In this document: in pieces, positions 40,773 through 51,054 of the stretch
Position numbering within the stretch: the first letter of the stretch is position 1
How the letters are laid out: the number at the start of each line of letters is the position of its first letter
Sequence record: NC_054910.1
Length of the DNA: 64,000 bases
Source: Escherichia phage EcNP1
Reading direction: 5' to 3' (one strand)
The notes under the pieces: model-generated
The model's input: only the letters and a program-made list of their open reading frames with translations
What the model was told of the DNA's origin: nothing
Database searches by the model: none
Made by a program: the position numbers and the translations under genes

Positions 40773-41348
40773 TTAATTACCACGGGCTGCATTAGCAACG
40801 GCGTAAGCATACTGAACATTAGCGTCTTTAAACGTACCTTTAGAGGTATCTAGTTCTGCCTTAAAGCCGCCTTTAGTCATAACCTCGGCGAATTCTTTAC
40901 GGAAAGCCATTGCATCAAGACCTTTCCATGCCGATTTGTGCTTGGCAAATTCAAGACCGGCGAAGTTGACAGCCTTAGCTAATTTATTATCAATAACCCA
41001 TTTACCAGCTTTAGGCGCAAACACTGGGCCTTTCTGTTTAGAGAATAATTTTAAATTCCAGCGACGAAGGTCACCGTCAGCTTTAACAAAAGCTGCGTCC
41101 AAGTTACTAGCAACAACATCTTGAATATGGCCAAATTTAAGCCCATCAACTTCAATATTTAGATCAGTACGCCAGCGAAGTCCTTCCCAAGCGAAAGCTT
41201 TAAAGTCGGAAGCTTTTGTAGCTAAGTATCGTTCAATAGGGGCTGTTTTAGGGTCAAAACCATTTCCTCGGTAAGTCCACTCATCTTTATTAATGCCTTT
41301 GGCCTTTTCCACAGAAGCTTCAGCGATAAATTCTTTATACGTTTTCAT
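40773..41348 (-). CDS. ipIII: Internal protein III (capsid targeting sequence MKTYKEFIAEA)
   Basis: 191 aa; CTS N-terminus; T4 IpIII-like. Confidence 0.88.
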   Translation of the reverse strand: MKTYKEFIAEASVEKAKGINKDEWTYRGNGFDPKTAPIERYLATKASDFKAFAWEGLRWRTDLNIEVDGLKFGHIQDVVASNLDAAFVKADGDLRRWNLKLFSKQKGPVFAPKAGKWVIDNKLAKAVNFAGLEFAKHKSAWKGLDAMAFRKEFAEVMTKGGFKAELDTSKGTFKDANVQYAYAVANAARGN

Positions 41349-41369
41349 GTGTTTCCTTGTTTGTTTTGA

Positions 41370-41408
41370 TAGAGTAATTATACCATATTAATACTTAAGC
41401 GTAAACTG
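41370..41408 (-). promoter_or_regulatory. T4-type early promoter
   Basis: Plus agtaattatacca...gtaaac (41401-41406). Confidence 0.6.
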
Positions 41409-41409
41409 T

Positions 41410-41664
41410 TTAAGCTTTACCGCCAGAAATAATTCCGAAGTTGTTAAAATCGTATCCAATATCGTCAACATCTACTTTAGGGCTTACTACAACATAAGCA
41501 ATTTCACTACGTTTTGCATAGGTGTTTATTTCTTTACCATTGCCGCCTGAGAAAGAATACCCATTACGTTTTAATGAGCCAAAATCTTCGGCATCACCAA
41601 TGAAAGCTTTAACTTTAAATTTGGGGCCTTTGGCATCTGCTTCAGCGATAAATTCTTGATACAT
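41410..41664 (-). CDS. ipII: Internal protein II-like (CTS variant MYQEFIAEA)
   Basis: 84 aa; RBS AAGGAAAAA; CTS-like N-terminus. Confidence 0.75.
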   Translation of the reverse strand: MYQEFIAEADAKGPKFKVKAFIGDAEDFGSLKRNGYSFSGGNGKEINTYAKRSEIAYVVVSPKVDVDDIGYDFNNFGIISGGKA

Positions 41665-41676
41665 TTTAATTTTTCC

Positions 41677-42090
41677 TTAGTAAATTGATTTACCATAGTA
41701 TTTGTACCAAGTAGGACGTTGAGCAATTTTTTCATCTAAGCATGCTTGACTTATCGCAATGGACGCTTCGTCCGGGACATAATTATTACGAAATTCGGCA
41801 GGGATGTCGGAAATATCCTGGACAGTCGTGTCCTTGATTTTGAAACCACGTTTCAAGCATTCAGCGATTAGCTCGATTTGACGTAAACGTAAAAATTCGA
41901 GTTTGTCGTAAAAGAATGTTACGTGACCTGTGCCTAATATAAATGTTGGAGAGATTTTAAAATCCTTTACACATTTACCGTTTTGAACATGTTTACGGAC
42001 TGCACCAAATACGCGTGGTAATTCACGATACTCAGCCATAAGATGTTGGTCGGCCAATTCAGAAACAAGTGTTAAATTGATACGGGTCAT
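41677..42090 (-). CDS. denV: Endonuclease V (pyrimidine dimer glycosylase)
   Basis: Start [11 protein letters not shown] (ATG 42088-42090, RBS GGAGGAAA), 137 aa; matches T4 DenV as recalled. Confidence 0.92.
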
Positions 42091-42110
42091 AATTTCCTCC
42101 AAGTAGTTGA

Positions 42111-42148
42111 TGAATGTATAGTATCAAAACCCTTGGAGGAAGTAAACA

Positions 42149-42149
<1 letters not shown>
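42111..42149 (-). promoter_or_regulatory. T4-type early promoter
   Basis: Plus aatgtatagtatca...agtaaac (42141-42147). Confidence 0.65.
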
Positions 42150-42951
<802 letters not shown>

Positions 42952-46423: not shown

Positions 46424-46460
46424 GCTCATAATATCTCAATCATGAGCCTATGTAAACTTA
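46424..46460 (-). promoter_or_regulatory. T4-type early promoter inside a 10-bp inverted repeat
   Basis: Plus ataggctcat aatatctcaatc atgagcctat then tgtaaac (46452-46458). Confidence 0.55.
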
Positions 46461-46721
46461 TTTCATATTATTAAAATATTCTTCTGCGATTTCGTCGTTA
46501 TCATGGTAAACTTTAGAAGACAGTTTAACATAACCTTCAGCAGTGAACATGTTAATCACAACATTTACAGTATACCACTGACCATCTTCATTACCCATTA
46601 CTGCGTAAGTTTCAAACATCGGATGATCAGGACCGATAACTTTAATATCATTCACTGTACGACCGAAATCTTCTGAAACGCATTTCATAAAGAAGTTGAA
46701 CAGTTCGCCGTAATTATCCAT
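46458..46721 (-). CDS. Hypothetical protein
   Basis: Internal start MDNYGELFNF with RBS GGAGAA. Confidence 0.55.
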   Translation of the reverse strand: MDNYGELFNFFMKCVSEDFGRTVNDIKVIGPDHPMFETYAVMGNEDGQWYTVNVVINMFTAEGYVKLSSKVYHDNDEIAEEYFNNMK

Positions 46722-46758
46722 TTCATTCTCCAAGTTGTTTTTCTGTATCAGTAGTTGA

Positions 46759-46797
46759 TAGTTGTATAGTACCATGGAAGAACAGGGATGTAAACAG
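46759..46797 (-). promoter_or_regulatory. T4-type early promoter
   Basis: Plus gttgatagttgtatagtacca...tgtaaacagttttgtgaaaaa (46789-46795). Confidence 0.7.
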
Positions 46798-46928: not shown

Positions 46929-46953
46929 AAAAAGCCCTATCATTTAGATAGGG
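46929..46953 (-). terminator. Rho-independent terminator
   Basis: Minus RNA CCCUAUCUAAAUGAUAGGG followed by CUUUUU, after 46962 stop. Confidence 0.65.
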
Positions 46954-46961
46954 ATTTAAAA

Positions 46962-47525
46962 TTATTTATCTAGTTTAGTTATTATAGCTTCTGCGGCAGC
47001 TTTTAGCTTAGATGCAGTGTTAATACGATTTTTAATTTCAGTATACGCATCGCCAAGAACATCAAGGCTATCAGAATAAACACTTACACTATTGCGTTCG
47101 CTATTTGAAATAAAACCTTTAGTTTTACGATCAAAATCGGTGTACACGTCTTGAAGATCACGGGCAGCCTTCTTTGCATCATCCAATGCATCAAGAGCTT
47201 TATTCAAAGCATTAACATATTTTTTAGTGTCAAACATATTCTTAGAAATTTTAACAGGTGCACGTTCAGGAGTAGCTAAGGCAGATTTAGGAACATGAGC
47301 GCCAGATGCCAATTTCTTAGAAATTTTGAAAAACGCTTTATTGAATTTATTTTCTTGACTCATCGTAAAAGAACTATTATCGATGTTATACATTTCAATA
47401 GCTTTAGCTTTCCACTTAAGAAAATCGCCACGGTCTTTTGGGTCTAATTGAAAGAATACTTTAGTAAGATCTGCTTCAGACGGTAATTTTGCTGCTTCGG
47501 TCAAAAATTCGGCATAGGTTTTCAT
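46962..47525 (-). CDS. Internal-protein-like protein with CTS (MKTYAEFLTEA)
   Basis: 187 aa; RBS AAGGA; CTS-like N-terminus. Confidence 0.75.
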   Translation of the reverse strand: MKTYAEFLTEAAKLPSEADLTKVFFQLDPKDRGDFLKWKAKAIEMYNIDNSSFTMSQENKFNKAFFKISKKLASGAHVPKSALATPERAPVKISKNMFDTKKYVNALNKALDALDDAKKAARDLQDVYTDFDRKTKGFISNSERNSVSVYSDSLDVLGDAYTEIKNRINTASKLKAAAEAIITKLDK

Positions 47526-47615
47526 TTAAAATCCTTGAAATAATTTATCGGTTGGTTATTAATTATTTATTACTTTGTTATTATCCGCAACAGCATTCTC
47601 TATGTGATTCAAACT

Positions 47616-47642
47616 AAAAAGCCCCAACCTTTCGGTCGGGGC
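47616..47642 (-). terminator. Rho-independent terminator, GNRA tetraloop (repeat copy 1)
   Basis: Minus RNA GCCCCGACCGAAAGGUUGGGGC followed by UUUUU. Confidence 0.75.
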
Positions 47643-47650
47643 TAAGAATG

Positions 47651-48123
47651 TTATTTGATTTGTTTAGCAGACCAAATGCGGTCTTTAATAATTTTTTGGA
47701 TGTCTTCAACATACTCTAGGTCATGAGCATGTGGGTTGTCTTTGAAACTATAAGCACGGGCTAACTTTTGGCCTTCGGTTTTGATTACTAAAAGCTCTTT
47801 AAGGATAGCTTCATATTTAGCGATAATTCCTTTAACAATATTTTTTTCTTGTGCAGCTTTAGGATCTGCTTTAGGAGCAGGTTTACCGGAAGGTTTTTCG
47901 AAAGCCGCACCAGTAGCAACCAGGCTTTTCCAGGCGGTGGTAACATAGTTACCCACAAAGCCTTCAGCTCTCATATCGTCGTAGAACTTGTACCTGGATT
48001 CGTCAGAAGCATCTTTATAAGAATATTTACCAGCTTTAATAGCAGCAGTTGCTACAGCGCGAACATCTGAAGCGGATGCTTCATTTAACACCACTTCATT
48101 TAAAATTGAGCATATGATTTCAT
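47651..48123 (-). pseudogene. Internal-protein-like gene disrupted by frameshift
   Basis: ATG 48121-48123 with RBS AGGAAA encodes MKSYAQF then TAA; 147-codon ORF continues in another frame; ~14-nt tandem duplication at junction. Confidence 0.45.
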
Positions 48124-48162
48124 CTTATTTCCTGTTTTAATTCGTGATTTAATACACTACTA

Positions 48163-48170
48163 TATTTATA
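48163..48170 (-). promoter_or_regulatory. Late promoter TATAAATA
   Basis: Plus tatttata between terminator copy 2 and the disrupted Ip-like gene. Confidence 0.55.
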
Positions 48171-48172
48171 CT

Positions 48173-48199
48173 AAAAAGCCCCAACCTTTCGGTCGGGGC
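48173..48199 (-). terminator. Rho-independent terminator, GNRA tetraloop (repeat copy 2)
   Basis: Identical to the hairpin at 47616-47642; ends the tRNA/stable RNA transcription unit. Confidence 0.75.
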
Positions 48200-48251
48200 T
48201 AAGCCTTGCGGCAACCTTGTCGGGGTTCCACCTGCTAAGGCAAGTGTTTGT

Positions 48252-48511: not shown

Positions 48512-48862
48512 TTAATATTCTTTTAAAGCATCAATTTGTTCACGGCGTTTACGCCATAAATCAATTGCTTCATACGCAGATTCAGCATTTCGAATTGGAC
48601 GGCATTTATATAAAGACTTGTGATTTTGATATTGTGTAGATAACGGAATTTTATCTAAAAGGTCTTTACGTTCAAAATATTCGTAACCATCTAAACCAAA
48701 TGAACGATTTTTGAGAAATTGCCAATGACCATATTCGTTTTCGACATAAACATAATCTGCATGCTGATAAAGTAAATTAATTACACGTTCAGAAATAACA
48801 GTGTCATTATGATTAAAATAGAATGTTAAATCATGAACTACTAAATAAACATTACCTTTCAT
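48512..48862 (-). CDS. Hypothetical protein
   Basis: ORF track 116 aa; RBS GAGGAAAAT. Confidence 0.65.
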   Translation of the reverse strand: MKGNVYLVVHDLTFYFNHNDTVISERVINLLYQHADYVYVENEYGHWQFLKNRSFGLDGYEYFERKDLLDKIPLSTQYQNHKSLYKCRPIRNAESAYEAIDLWRKRREQIDALKEY

Positions 48863-48878: not shown

Positions 48879-48954
48879 TGGTCGAGGCAGTAGGGATCGA
48901 ACCTACGACCTAGGACTTAGAAGGTCCTTGCTCTTCCTTCTGAGCTATGCCTCG
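48879..48954 (-). tRNA. tRNA-Arg (anticodon UCU)
   Basis: Manual fold: acceptor CGAGGCA/UGCCUCG, T-arm GGTTCGATCC, anticodon loop CUUCUAA, encoded CCA. Confidence 0.85.
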
Positions 48955-48958
48955 GATT

Positions 48959-49033
48959 TGGCGGACGTGATAGGATTCGAACCTATAACCAATCGCTTAA
49001 CAGGCGATCGCTCTGCCATTGAGCTACACATCC
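48959..49033 (-). tRNA. tRNA-Asn (anticodon GUU)
   Basis: Manual fold: acceptor GGAUGUG/CACGUCC with G-U, anticodon stem AUCGC/GCGAU, loop CUGUUAA. Confidence 0.8.
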
Positions 49034-49037
49034 AAAT

Positions 49038-49124
49038 TGGTGGGGAGTGATGGAGTCGAACCACCCGAGTCGCAATGACAATGGATTTACAGTCCACACC
49101 GCTACCTCTACGGAATAACTCCCC
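49038..49124 (-). tRNA. tRNA-Tyr (anticodon GUA), long variable arm
   Basis: Manual fold: 87 nt, acceptor GGGGAGU/ACUCCCC, anticodon loop CUGUAAA. Confidence 0.8.
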
Positions 49125-49133
49125 AAATTAATT

Positions 49134-49208
49134 TGGTGGCCCTGGGTGGAATTGAACCACCATCTGGCGATTATGAGTCGCTTGCTTGAACCTTCCAGCT
49201 ACAGGGCC
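49134..49208 (-). tRNA. tRNA with anticodon CAU (Ile2-type or Met)
   Basis: Manual fold: acceptor GGCCCUG/CAGGGCC, perfect T-arm, anticodon loop CUCAUAA; occupies the T4 tRNA-Ile position. Confidence 0.75.
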
Positions 49209-49209
49209 T

Positions 49210-49285
49210 TGGTGCTGATTGACGGAATCGAACCGCCGACCTTCTCATTACAAGTGAGTTGCTCTACCTACTGAGCTAAATCAGC
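49210..49285 (-). tRNA. tRNA-Thr (anticodon UGU)
   Basis: Manual fold: acceptor GCUGAUU/AAUCAGC, anticodon loop CUUGUAA. Confidence 0.85.
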
Positions 49286-49290
49286 AAAAC

Positions 49291-49380
49291 TGGCGGAGGC
49301 GATAGGATTCGAACCTATGAGTCGCCGGAGCGACTGCCGGTTTTCAAGACCGGTGCATTAAACCACTCTGCCACGCCTCC
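49291..49380 (-). tRNA. tRNA-Ser (anticodon UGA), long variable arm
   Basis: Manual fold: 90 nt, acceptor GGAGGCG/CGCCUCC, anticodon stem CCGGU/ACCGG, loop CUUGAAA. Confidence 0.85.
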
Positions 49381-49382
49381 AG

Positions 49383-49456
49383 TCTCCATACAAGGATTTG
49401 AACCTTGGACCTCCTGATCCCAAATCAGGCGCTCTACCAAACTGAGCTACACGGAG
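49383..49456 (-). tRNA. tRNA-Pro (anticodon UGG)
   Basis: Manual fold: acceptor with two G-U pairs, anticodon loop UUUGGGA, CCA not encoded. Confidence 0.8.
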
Positions 49457-49466
49457 TAAATTAAAT

Positions 49467-49540
<74 letters not shown>

Positions 49541-49545
49541 AAATT

Positions 49546-49632
49546 TGGTGCGAGAAGTGGGACTCGAACCCACAAGGAAATCATTCCGCAGCATTTTAAG
49601 TGCTGTGCCTTTACCAATTTGACCATTCTCGC
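49546..49632 (-). tRNA. tRNA-Leu (anticodon UAA), long variable arm
   Basis: Manual fold: 87 nt, acceptor GCGAGAA/UUCUCGC, anticodon loop CUUAAAA. Confidence 0.85.
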
Positions 49633-49633
49633 G

Positions 49634-49706
49634 CTGGGAATAAAGGACTCGAACCTTTGCATCCTGGAATCAAAATCCAGTGCCTTACCAACTTGGCTAA
49701 TTCCCA
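49634..49706 (-). tRNA. tRNA-Gln (anticodon UUG)
   Basis: Manual fold: acceptor UGGGAAU/AUUCCCA, anticodon loop UUUUGAU. Confidence 0.85.
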
Positions 49707-50766: not shown

Positions 50767-51054
50767 TTACAAAAGATTTTTAGCAATAATCTTGAGATGT
50801 GCCGCAGAAATGTGTTTAGCTTTAAACAACGCAGTTTCTTCAGCAGGAGAGATAATGATTGTAGCACCATCCTTTTTAGCAGACCACCCATCACCTAGGT
50901 AAACAGTACCTTTGATTTCTTCGCCATCAACCAAACTAATCATTGGTTTACCTTCTCGTCCTTTATTTGCTTTAATAACTTCAGAAGTAAGAGTAGCTTC
51001 AGTAATAGTAGAAACCGGGGTAGTTGTAGAAGTAAATTCTTTGAAAGTTTTCAT
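50767..51054 (-). CDS. ipI: Internal protein I-like (CTS-like N-terminus MKTFKEF)
   Basis: 95 aa, same length and position as T4 ipI next to 57B. Confidence 0.78.
   Translation of the reverse strand: MKTFKEFTSTTTPVSTITEATLTSEVIKANKGREGKPMISLVDGEEIKGTVYLGDGWSAKKDGATIIISPAEETALFKAKHISAAHLKIIAKNLL

Follow-up and report, generated by a model that had tools for sequence, protein, structure and literature searches.

What does the extra gene between the e-distal genes and the tRNA region of a T4-like phage encode, and does its product travel in the phage head? In the window, the 64,000-nucleotide stretch of Escherichia phage EcNP1 (NC_054910.1) that we analysed, a 187-codon open reading frame at this locus had been put forward as a candidate internal protein (Ip) bearing a capsid targeting sequence (CTS). 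The window derives from a Tequatrovirus: 10.7 kb of it aligned to phage Nami with 99.8% identity, and for a 901-nt query comprising the gene and its flanks the identity to both Escherichia phage vB_EcoM_Nami and Salmonella phage F13076 was 99.9%.

The frame is there as predicted, starting MKTYAEFLTEA, and could be assigned to the minus strand, which the original prediction had not given (Table 1). The good ribosome binding site and the downstream terminator that had been ascribed to it were likewise borne out, the latter as a hairpin with a T-run 9 nt past the stop codon. Six terminator-like sites were detected by a terminator scan in the 2.3-kb stretch around the gene, compared to 1.7 ± 1.3 in shuffled sequences. 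Apart from tRNAs, no Rfam family matched the region, including the intergenic stretches on either side of the gene. Along the direction of transcription, the tRNA cluster is followed by a 116-aa ORF, rnaD/rnaC, a terminator, the canonical late promoter TATAAATA, a frameshifted 157-aa gene, a second terminator, the motif AATAAATA, the 187-aa gene with its own terminator and, finally, the e.8 (46458..46775), e.7 and e.6 homologues. The gene therefore lies between the e-distal ORFs and the tRNA cluster, as had been claimed, but it is more than filler in a variable region, since the synteny is conserved in many Tevenvirinae. The tRNA cluster itself (48879..49706, minus strand) holds ten genes (Gln, Leu, Gly, Pro, Ser, Thr, Met, Tyr, Asn and Arg) versus eight in T4. 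The segB gene is absent from the tRNA region of the window, and the 116-aa ORF (48512..48862, minus strand), located between tRNA-Arg and rnaD, has no assigned function.

Table 1. Features of the 187-aa gene, its surroundings and the other CTS-type genes of the window (positions in the window; arrows mark predicted cleavage)
Feature	Position	Strand	Remarks
CDS, 187 aa plus stop	46962..47525	-	ATG start; begins MKTYAEFLTEAAKLPSEADL; candidate internal head protein, PHROG 2280
Predicted capsid targeting sequence, codons 1-10, MKTYAEFLTE	47496..47525	-	predicted gp21 cut after Glu10 (LTE↓A)
Predicted mature protein, residues 11-187	46965..47495	-	177 residues, 19.8 kDa, pI 9.5
Shine-Dalgarno sequence AAGGA	47532..47536	-	6-nt spacer to ATG; direct sequence reading
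Late-promoter-like motif AATAAATA	47564..47571	-	38 nt upstream of the ATG of the 187-aa gene
Intrinsic terminator of the 187-aa gene	46935..46953	-	hairpin CCCTATC-TAAAT-GATAGGG, then CTTTTTGG
Tandem paralog, 157 aa when intact (MKSYAQFLNEVVLNE↓ASASD...)	47651..48123	-	frameshifted in the window
Canonical late promoter TATAAATA	48163..48170	-	39 nt upstream of the paralog ATG
Intrinsic terminator ending the paralog	47620..47643	-	10-bp stem, 7 GC pairs, T-run; second copy of the 34-bp repeat
Terminator hairpin, end of rnaC	48177..48200	-	first copy of the terminator repeat; one junction of the block absent from T4
ipIII	40773..41348		CTS-type gene
ipII-position gene, 84 aa	41410..41664	-	shortened leader MYQEFIAE↓A
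93-aa gene	42149..42430	-	CTS leader, then ↓A; start overlaps the stop of lysozyme gene e (ATGA)
ipI	50767..51054		Pfam IPI_T4 at 2e-53; 3.2 kb from the 187-aa gene

The motif upstream of the gene, AATAAATA, differs from TATAAATA solely by a mismatch at position -13, and conservation of the T at -13 is reported to be poor in the late promoters of T4 relatives (Nolan et al., PMC1524935). The ATAAATA core is found at the same place in homologues, with the motif reading AATAAATA in Shfl2 and GATAAATA in CT01. Four of the seven orthologues that we fetched from other genera (those of Karamvirus, Mosigvirus, Dhakavirus and Jiaodavirus) are preceded by the canonical TATAAATA and the other three by one-mismatch variants; where measured, the motif lies approximately 30-40 nt before the ATG, directly past a terminator. 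The core is rare in the window as a whole, with 19 copies on both strands versus 39 ± 6 expected from 100 dinucleotide-preserving shuffles, every one of which contained at least 19 copies. Given this scarcity, a copy on the right strand and at the right distance from the 187-aa gene is unlikely to have arisen by chance, the likelihood being roughly 1% for a 60-nt target, and we regard AATAAATA as the putative late promoter of the gene. Sites resembling sigma-70 promoters or MotA-type promoters were rejected as upstream signals: they are no commoner than in the shuffles, and the spacing of the MotA box does not fit. The shortage of ATAAATA across the window is consistent with selection against spurious late promoters. 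A second copy (46963..46969, minus strand), directly before the terminator, runs into the stop codon of the gene (GAT AAA TAA) and is probably a coding coincidence.

The leader argues for packaging. MKTYAEFLTE↓A is identical in 7 of 10 residues to MKTYQEFIAE↓A of T4 IPII and IPIII. According to the mutagenesis summarised in a review of the work of L. W. Black (PMC9026906), the first ten residues suffice for the packaging of IPIII, targeting depends most on residues 4 and 7 of the T4 CTS, and processing on residues 8 and 10. At these positions the 187-aa protein has Tyr4, Phe7, Leu8 (Ile in T4) and Glu10. The protein has no [LIV]xE[AGS] site other than the LTE↓A at residues 8-11, and a single 177-residue chain is therefore predicted, which would start at Ala11 with AAKLPSEADLTK.... 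When all 528 frames of the window that start with Met and reach 50 aa or more were scanned, the motif M-x(0-2)-[YF]-x-[EDQ]-[FI]-[LIT]-x-E proved to be confined to the Ip-type genes; judged by its sequence, the leader is not a chance match. Phage Nami, the genome of which is near-identical, encodes gp21 (Peptidase_S77, 1.5e-111), gp22 and gp67, genes that fall outside the window. Because the leader is of the T4 capsid-targeting type, the gene most likely specifies one more internal protein, and its product is probably packaged in the head in the manner of T4 internal proteins. The label of CTS-bearing internal-protein candidate is thus supported by the leader, the Glu site, the late-promoter motif found in most relatives and the small, basic predicted mature proteins, and 'candidate' is the right strength for it.

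The gene belongs to a wider family. The 187-aa protein matches PHROG 2280 over its full length (E 5.9e-53, residues 1-181 versus profile positions 1-178 of 178), which provides a grouping only, since this PHROG carries no function or category. A word-indexed search returned only proteins at least 87% identical to the query, and when 1.84 billion representatives were searched exhaustively with an HMM, one distant protein joined them, P0025, which starts with MITFNEFLNESEMINE↓AG. It was this single match that opened up the wider family: tblastn with P0025 retrieved 349 phage records, all labelled hypothetical, from Tequatrovirus, Mosigvirus, Dhakavirus, Karamvirus, Winklervirus, Kanagawavirus and Jiaodavirus as well as from phages of Klebsiella, Enterobacter, Serratia, Kosakonia and Erwinia. 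The slot from tRNA/rnaC to e.8 harbours an orthologue in at least seven Tevenvirinae groups. At every annotated locus that we fetched the tRNA/rnaC region lies upstream of the orthologue, which in Dhakavirus dhaeg directly precedes an annotated e.8 homologue.

The leader is a constant of this family. The seven fetched orthologues begin with MLNFKEFIAESDSDMITE↓AG, MYTFNEFLAETEVITE↓AG, MLKFKEFISE↓A, MKTYNEFLNESVLTE↓AS, MLKFKDILAE↓S, MLNFNEFITESVELVTE↓AG and MKFKDFLTEEELFE↓AA. A profile search returned 42 proteins, and in the resulting alignment of 39 sequences a leader is present in every full-length relative, all of which are basic; full-length, leader-bearing relatives come from Dhakavirus, Mosigvirus, Karamvirus, Winklervirus, Kanagawavirus, Jiaodavirus and an unclassified Klebsiella straboviral phage. 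A strict [LIV]xE↓[AGS] site at residues 9-19 is present in almost every full-length member, and two members of the 157-aa paralog group have the variant sites MTE↓A and LTE↓Q. When 27 orthologues from other genera were compared with the 187-aa protein, identity amounted to 57% in the ten leader residues versus 21% elsewhere. The mature proteins of the family have a pI of 9.3-9.9 and a mass of 15-22 kDa, being basic like the T4 Ips. The source names of approximately 100 cluster members, among them RB14ORF136, Shfl2p135, JS98 gp135 and IME08 gp129, all read 'hypothetical protein' except for one isopenicillin N synthase-like dioxygenase, which is evidently a spurious automated annotation.

Structure prediction with AlphaFold2 yielded a mean pLDDT of 80.6 for the 187-aa protein when the 39-sequence alignment was used, compared to 60.8 in a first run with a shallow alignment. 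In the model, a leader of low confidence (residues 1-11) precedes a four-helix N-domain (residues ~13-76, pLDDT 70-85), which a flexible, disordered linker (77-98) joins to a three-helix unit at the C-terminus (101-186, pLDDT >90); the protein is therefore predicted to be all-helical and to consist of two domains. The orthologue of Shigella phage CT01 (L011, 1501..1989) has an in-frame 25-residue deletion between two KISK motifs that removes the whole inter-domain linker, indicating that the linker is dispensable, and the orthologues from other genera have a Pro/Ala/Lys-rich linker of 40-55 residues instead. Sequence searches of Pfam, NCBIfam and the PDB gave only sub-threshold noise (cytochrome b562, a sigma-70 fragment, a nanobody), and fold searches with the model found only family members or generic helical hairpins and no characterised fold relative. 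The resemblance to known Ips lay mainly in the leader: in hhalign comparisons of the family profile with T4 IPII and with the 93-aa candidate of the window, the alignment covered the leader only (11 and 16 columns, respectively), and with the IPIII of the window it extended over 34 columns at low confidence (probability 51%). Typically, Ips resemble each other in the leader only (PMC12373910). The 187-aa protein had no match to Pfam IPI_T4, and neither sequence nor fold searches related it to IPI*, Ip2 or Ip3.

One may ask whether the frame is functional at all or has arisen by chance or through decay of a former gene: a frameshift disrupts its neighbour in the window, and a few records have shortened copies of the gene. 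However, out of the 517 phage records that match any part of the 901-nt query the gene is present in 163, where it is intact at 95-99% identity, and full-length orthologues exist in several genera. Comparison with Shfl2 revealed 18 synonymous versus 7 non-synonymous codon differences, and this excess of synonymous change indicates, at the level of the codons, that the gene is under purifying selection. The presence of a ribosome binding site, a promoter motif and a terminator, as well as the confident model obtained from many sequences, likewise speaks against a non-functional frame. We consider this explanation very improbable, and it is already contradicted by the data.

The frameshifted neighbour is itself informative. 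Its reading frame is broken by the loss of one T from the run at 48102..48105: the window has TTTT and the frame ends after MKSYAQF, whereas Nami has TTTTT and encodes an intact 157-aa protein starting with MKSYAQFLNEVVLNE↓ASASD. The break may be real or may stem from a sequencing error in the homopolymer. The 157-aa protein matches the same PHROG as the 187-aa protein, PHROG 2280, over its full length (1.2e-48). Direct BLASTP and a first hhalign comparison between the two proteins gave weak results; aligned via intermediates from other genera, they have in common the helical N-domain, the Pro/Ala/Lys stretch and the C-terminal helices, and the neighbour is therefore a distant tandem paralog. 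In the case of this paralog there is a pointer to the virion: g140 of Yersinia phage fD1 is listed as phage-particle-associated in a published LC-MS/MS table (PMC8309999 supplement). The specificity of the table is poor, as endonuclease V, lysozyme, NudE and thymidine kinase are also flagged in it, and the entry provides weak support for packaging of the paralog. For the 187-aa protein of any phage, our literature searches found no published virion proteomics, N-terminal sequencing or genetic evidence.

Comparison with close relatives suggests how these genes come and go. Only 284 nt separate e.8 from rnaC in T4, which lacks window positions 46953..48168 (1.2 kb), and both junctions of this indel fall within the GGGGCTTTTT half of terminator hairpins, one at the end of rnaC and the other in the 3′ half and T-run of the terminator of the 187-aa gene. 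The cassette of the paralog is in turn bounded by a 34-bp terminator repeat (47612..47645 and 48167..48200). In Shfl2 and CT01 the 187-type gene stands alone and directly follows rnaC, in phiD1 the 157-type gene is the only one present, and the window and Nami have both; being absent from T4 and phiD1, the 187-aa gene is dispensable and polymorphic among close relatives. From this hairpin-bounded pattern of presence and absence it follows that the genes behave as terminator-bounded cassettes, and the position of the junctions suggests that recombination between repeated terminators mediates cassette gain and loss among close relatives.

The same cassette structure is compatible with a reading in which the protein is a late cytoplasmic one that is never packaged, the shared 5′ end of the gene being kept mainly as a recombination module by which cassettes move from one Ip locus to another, and its likeness to a targeting sequence being incidental. 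The repeated terminators that bound the cassettes and hold the indel junctions fit such a role. So does a proposal that Repoila et al. reportedly made in 1994 for the ipI locus, namely that conserved blocks around ip genes mediate shuffling. However, the leader is conserved as amino acids and not as nucleotides: in the CTS genes of the window its codons frequently diverge at the third position. Moreover, the leader survives in genera in which both the body of the gene and its flanks have diverged, and the Glu-Ala/Ser context of the cleavage site is kept as well. On this evidence we judge an unpackaged product to be decidedly improbable, and a packaged internal protein remains the reading that we prefer.

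Other CTS-type genes occur in the window, and the original count of up to six holds. They comprise ipI, ipIII, the 93-aa gene, the gene at the ipII position, the 187-aa gene and its disrupted paralog. The gene that had been taken for ipII is indeed a CTS-type gene at that locus, but its product is a different Ip from T4 IPII, to which it is unrelated past the leader. The gene reads ATT AAA ATG TAT CAA where T4 has ATG AAA ACT TAT CAA, and since the only ATG is the third codon, the leader is shortened. The 93-aa gene is located between e and denV, where T4 has no such gene, and is annotated in Nami as 'putative internal head protein'. Along the direction of transcription the window (40773..42915) has e, the 93-aa Ip gene, denV, the 84-aa Ip gene and ipIII, versus e, ipIII, ipII and denV in T4; given this difference in order, not only have Ip genes around denV been replaced, but their arrangement has changed too.

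How does the 187-aa protein compare with the internal proteins that are already known? With T4 IPII and IPIII it has in common a near-identical leader, the predicted cut after Glu10 and a gene that is non-essential and polymorphic among T-even phages; like mature IPIII, its mature product would be small, basic and approximately 20 kDa in size. The similarity to IPII and IPIII ends at the leader, however, and packaging is in this case a prediction. Unlike ipII and ipIII, the gene lies between e.8 and rnaC and not beside denV and e, and its family is conserved across genera. IPI and IPI* (PF11634, GmrSD inhibitor) carry the same kind of leader, and function is modelled on IPI, which is injected and inhibits type IV restriction, but IPI combines a 19-residue leader with a compact alpha/beta fold, in contrast to the all-helical, two-domain architecture predicted here. 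In its diversity beyond a common leader, its conserved flanking transcription signals and its apparent cassette shuffling, the family resembles the polymorphic ORFs of the T-even ipI locus. The polymorphic Ip ORFs of Repoila et al. (1994), with roughly ten Ips named, are said to sit at that locus; the 187-aa family occupies a third one.

The conservation of the family bears on what a packaged protein would do. Ip1, Ip2 and Ip3 each inhibit a distinct GmrSD-type enzyme (PMC12373910), and IPIII devoid of its leader works from the host cytoplasm (PMC9391042). Unlike the sporadic Ip1-3, the family has cross-genus synteny, and it could therefore have a structural or DNA-organising role instead of a narrow anti-defence one. 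This leads to a further explanation, according to which the leader brings the protein into the scaffolding core as an accessory of the prohead, where it aids head assembly or DNA condensation and is then either degraded by gp21 or kept as a structural protein on the DNA that plays no part in the next host. Conserved synteny across many genera, which is not typical of anti-defence Ips, agrees with this, as do the basic nature of the proteins, the Pro/Ala/Lys-rich linker of the other-genus orthologues, which is reminiscent of DNA-binding tails, and the head-assembly aberrations of T4 IPIII mutants (PMC9026906). Yet T4 and phiD1 build their heads without the 187-aa gene, the linker is short in the 187-aa protein and deleted outright in CT01, and complete degradation is not predicted given that there is only one gp21-type site. 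We consider a purely prohead-bound role unlikely.

We infer packaging, cleavage, injection and an anti-defence role for the gene product, and the sequence of events would be as follows. The gene would be transcribed late from AATAAATA, possibly with read-through from the TATAAATA promoter of the paralog. The leader MKTYAEFLTE would guide the precursor to the scaffolding core inside the prohead, where the prohead protease gp21 would cut after Glu10 (LTE↓A), releasing a basic, all-helical protein of 19.8 kDa that would stay in the head with the DNA. The mature protein would then enter the next host together with the injected DNA and, most likely, act there in early counter-defence, for which the best-supported analogy is the inhibition of GmrSD-type modification-dependent nucleases by T4 Ip1, Ip2 and Ip3. 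By this analogy an anti-defence role is a reasonable candidate function, held with considerably lower confidence than packaging and with no target implied.

What appears to be new here, as a candidate drawn from comparative sequence analysis, is an unannotated Ip family at a third locus that spans genera and is absent from T4. This family is duplicated in some Tequatroviruses and deleted in T4. More speculatively, and with doubt outweighing confidence, the locus may be a third, previously unrecognised Ip locus of T-even phages, holding a two-domain helical family at a fixed site in most Tevenvirinae genera, with products that are injected and directed at a widespread host defence beyond the GmrSD variants that Ip1-3 cover, or at the injected DNA. 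If this is true, the family would have escaped six decades of T4 genetics because T4 lacks it. Each T4 internal protein examined so far is an inhibitor of a different modification-dependent nuclease (PMC12373910), and new leader-bearing proteins are therefore candidates for anti-defence discovery; they may also explain differences in host range among therapeutic T4-like phages. Among the sequenced phages that infect Escherichia, Shigella, Salmonella, Yersinia, Klebsiella, Enterobacter and Serratia, hundreds carry the family, all of them with the protein annotated as hypothetical, and re-annotating it would be cheap.
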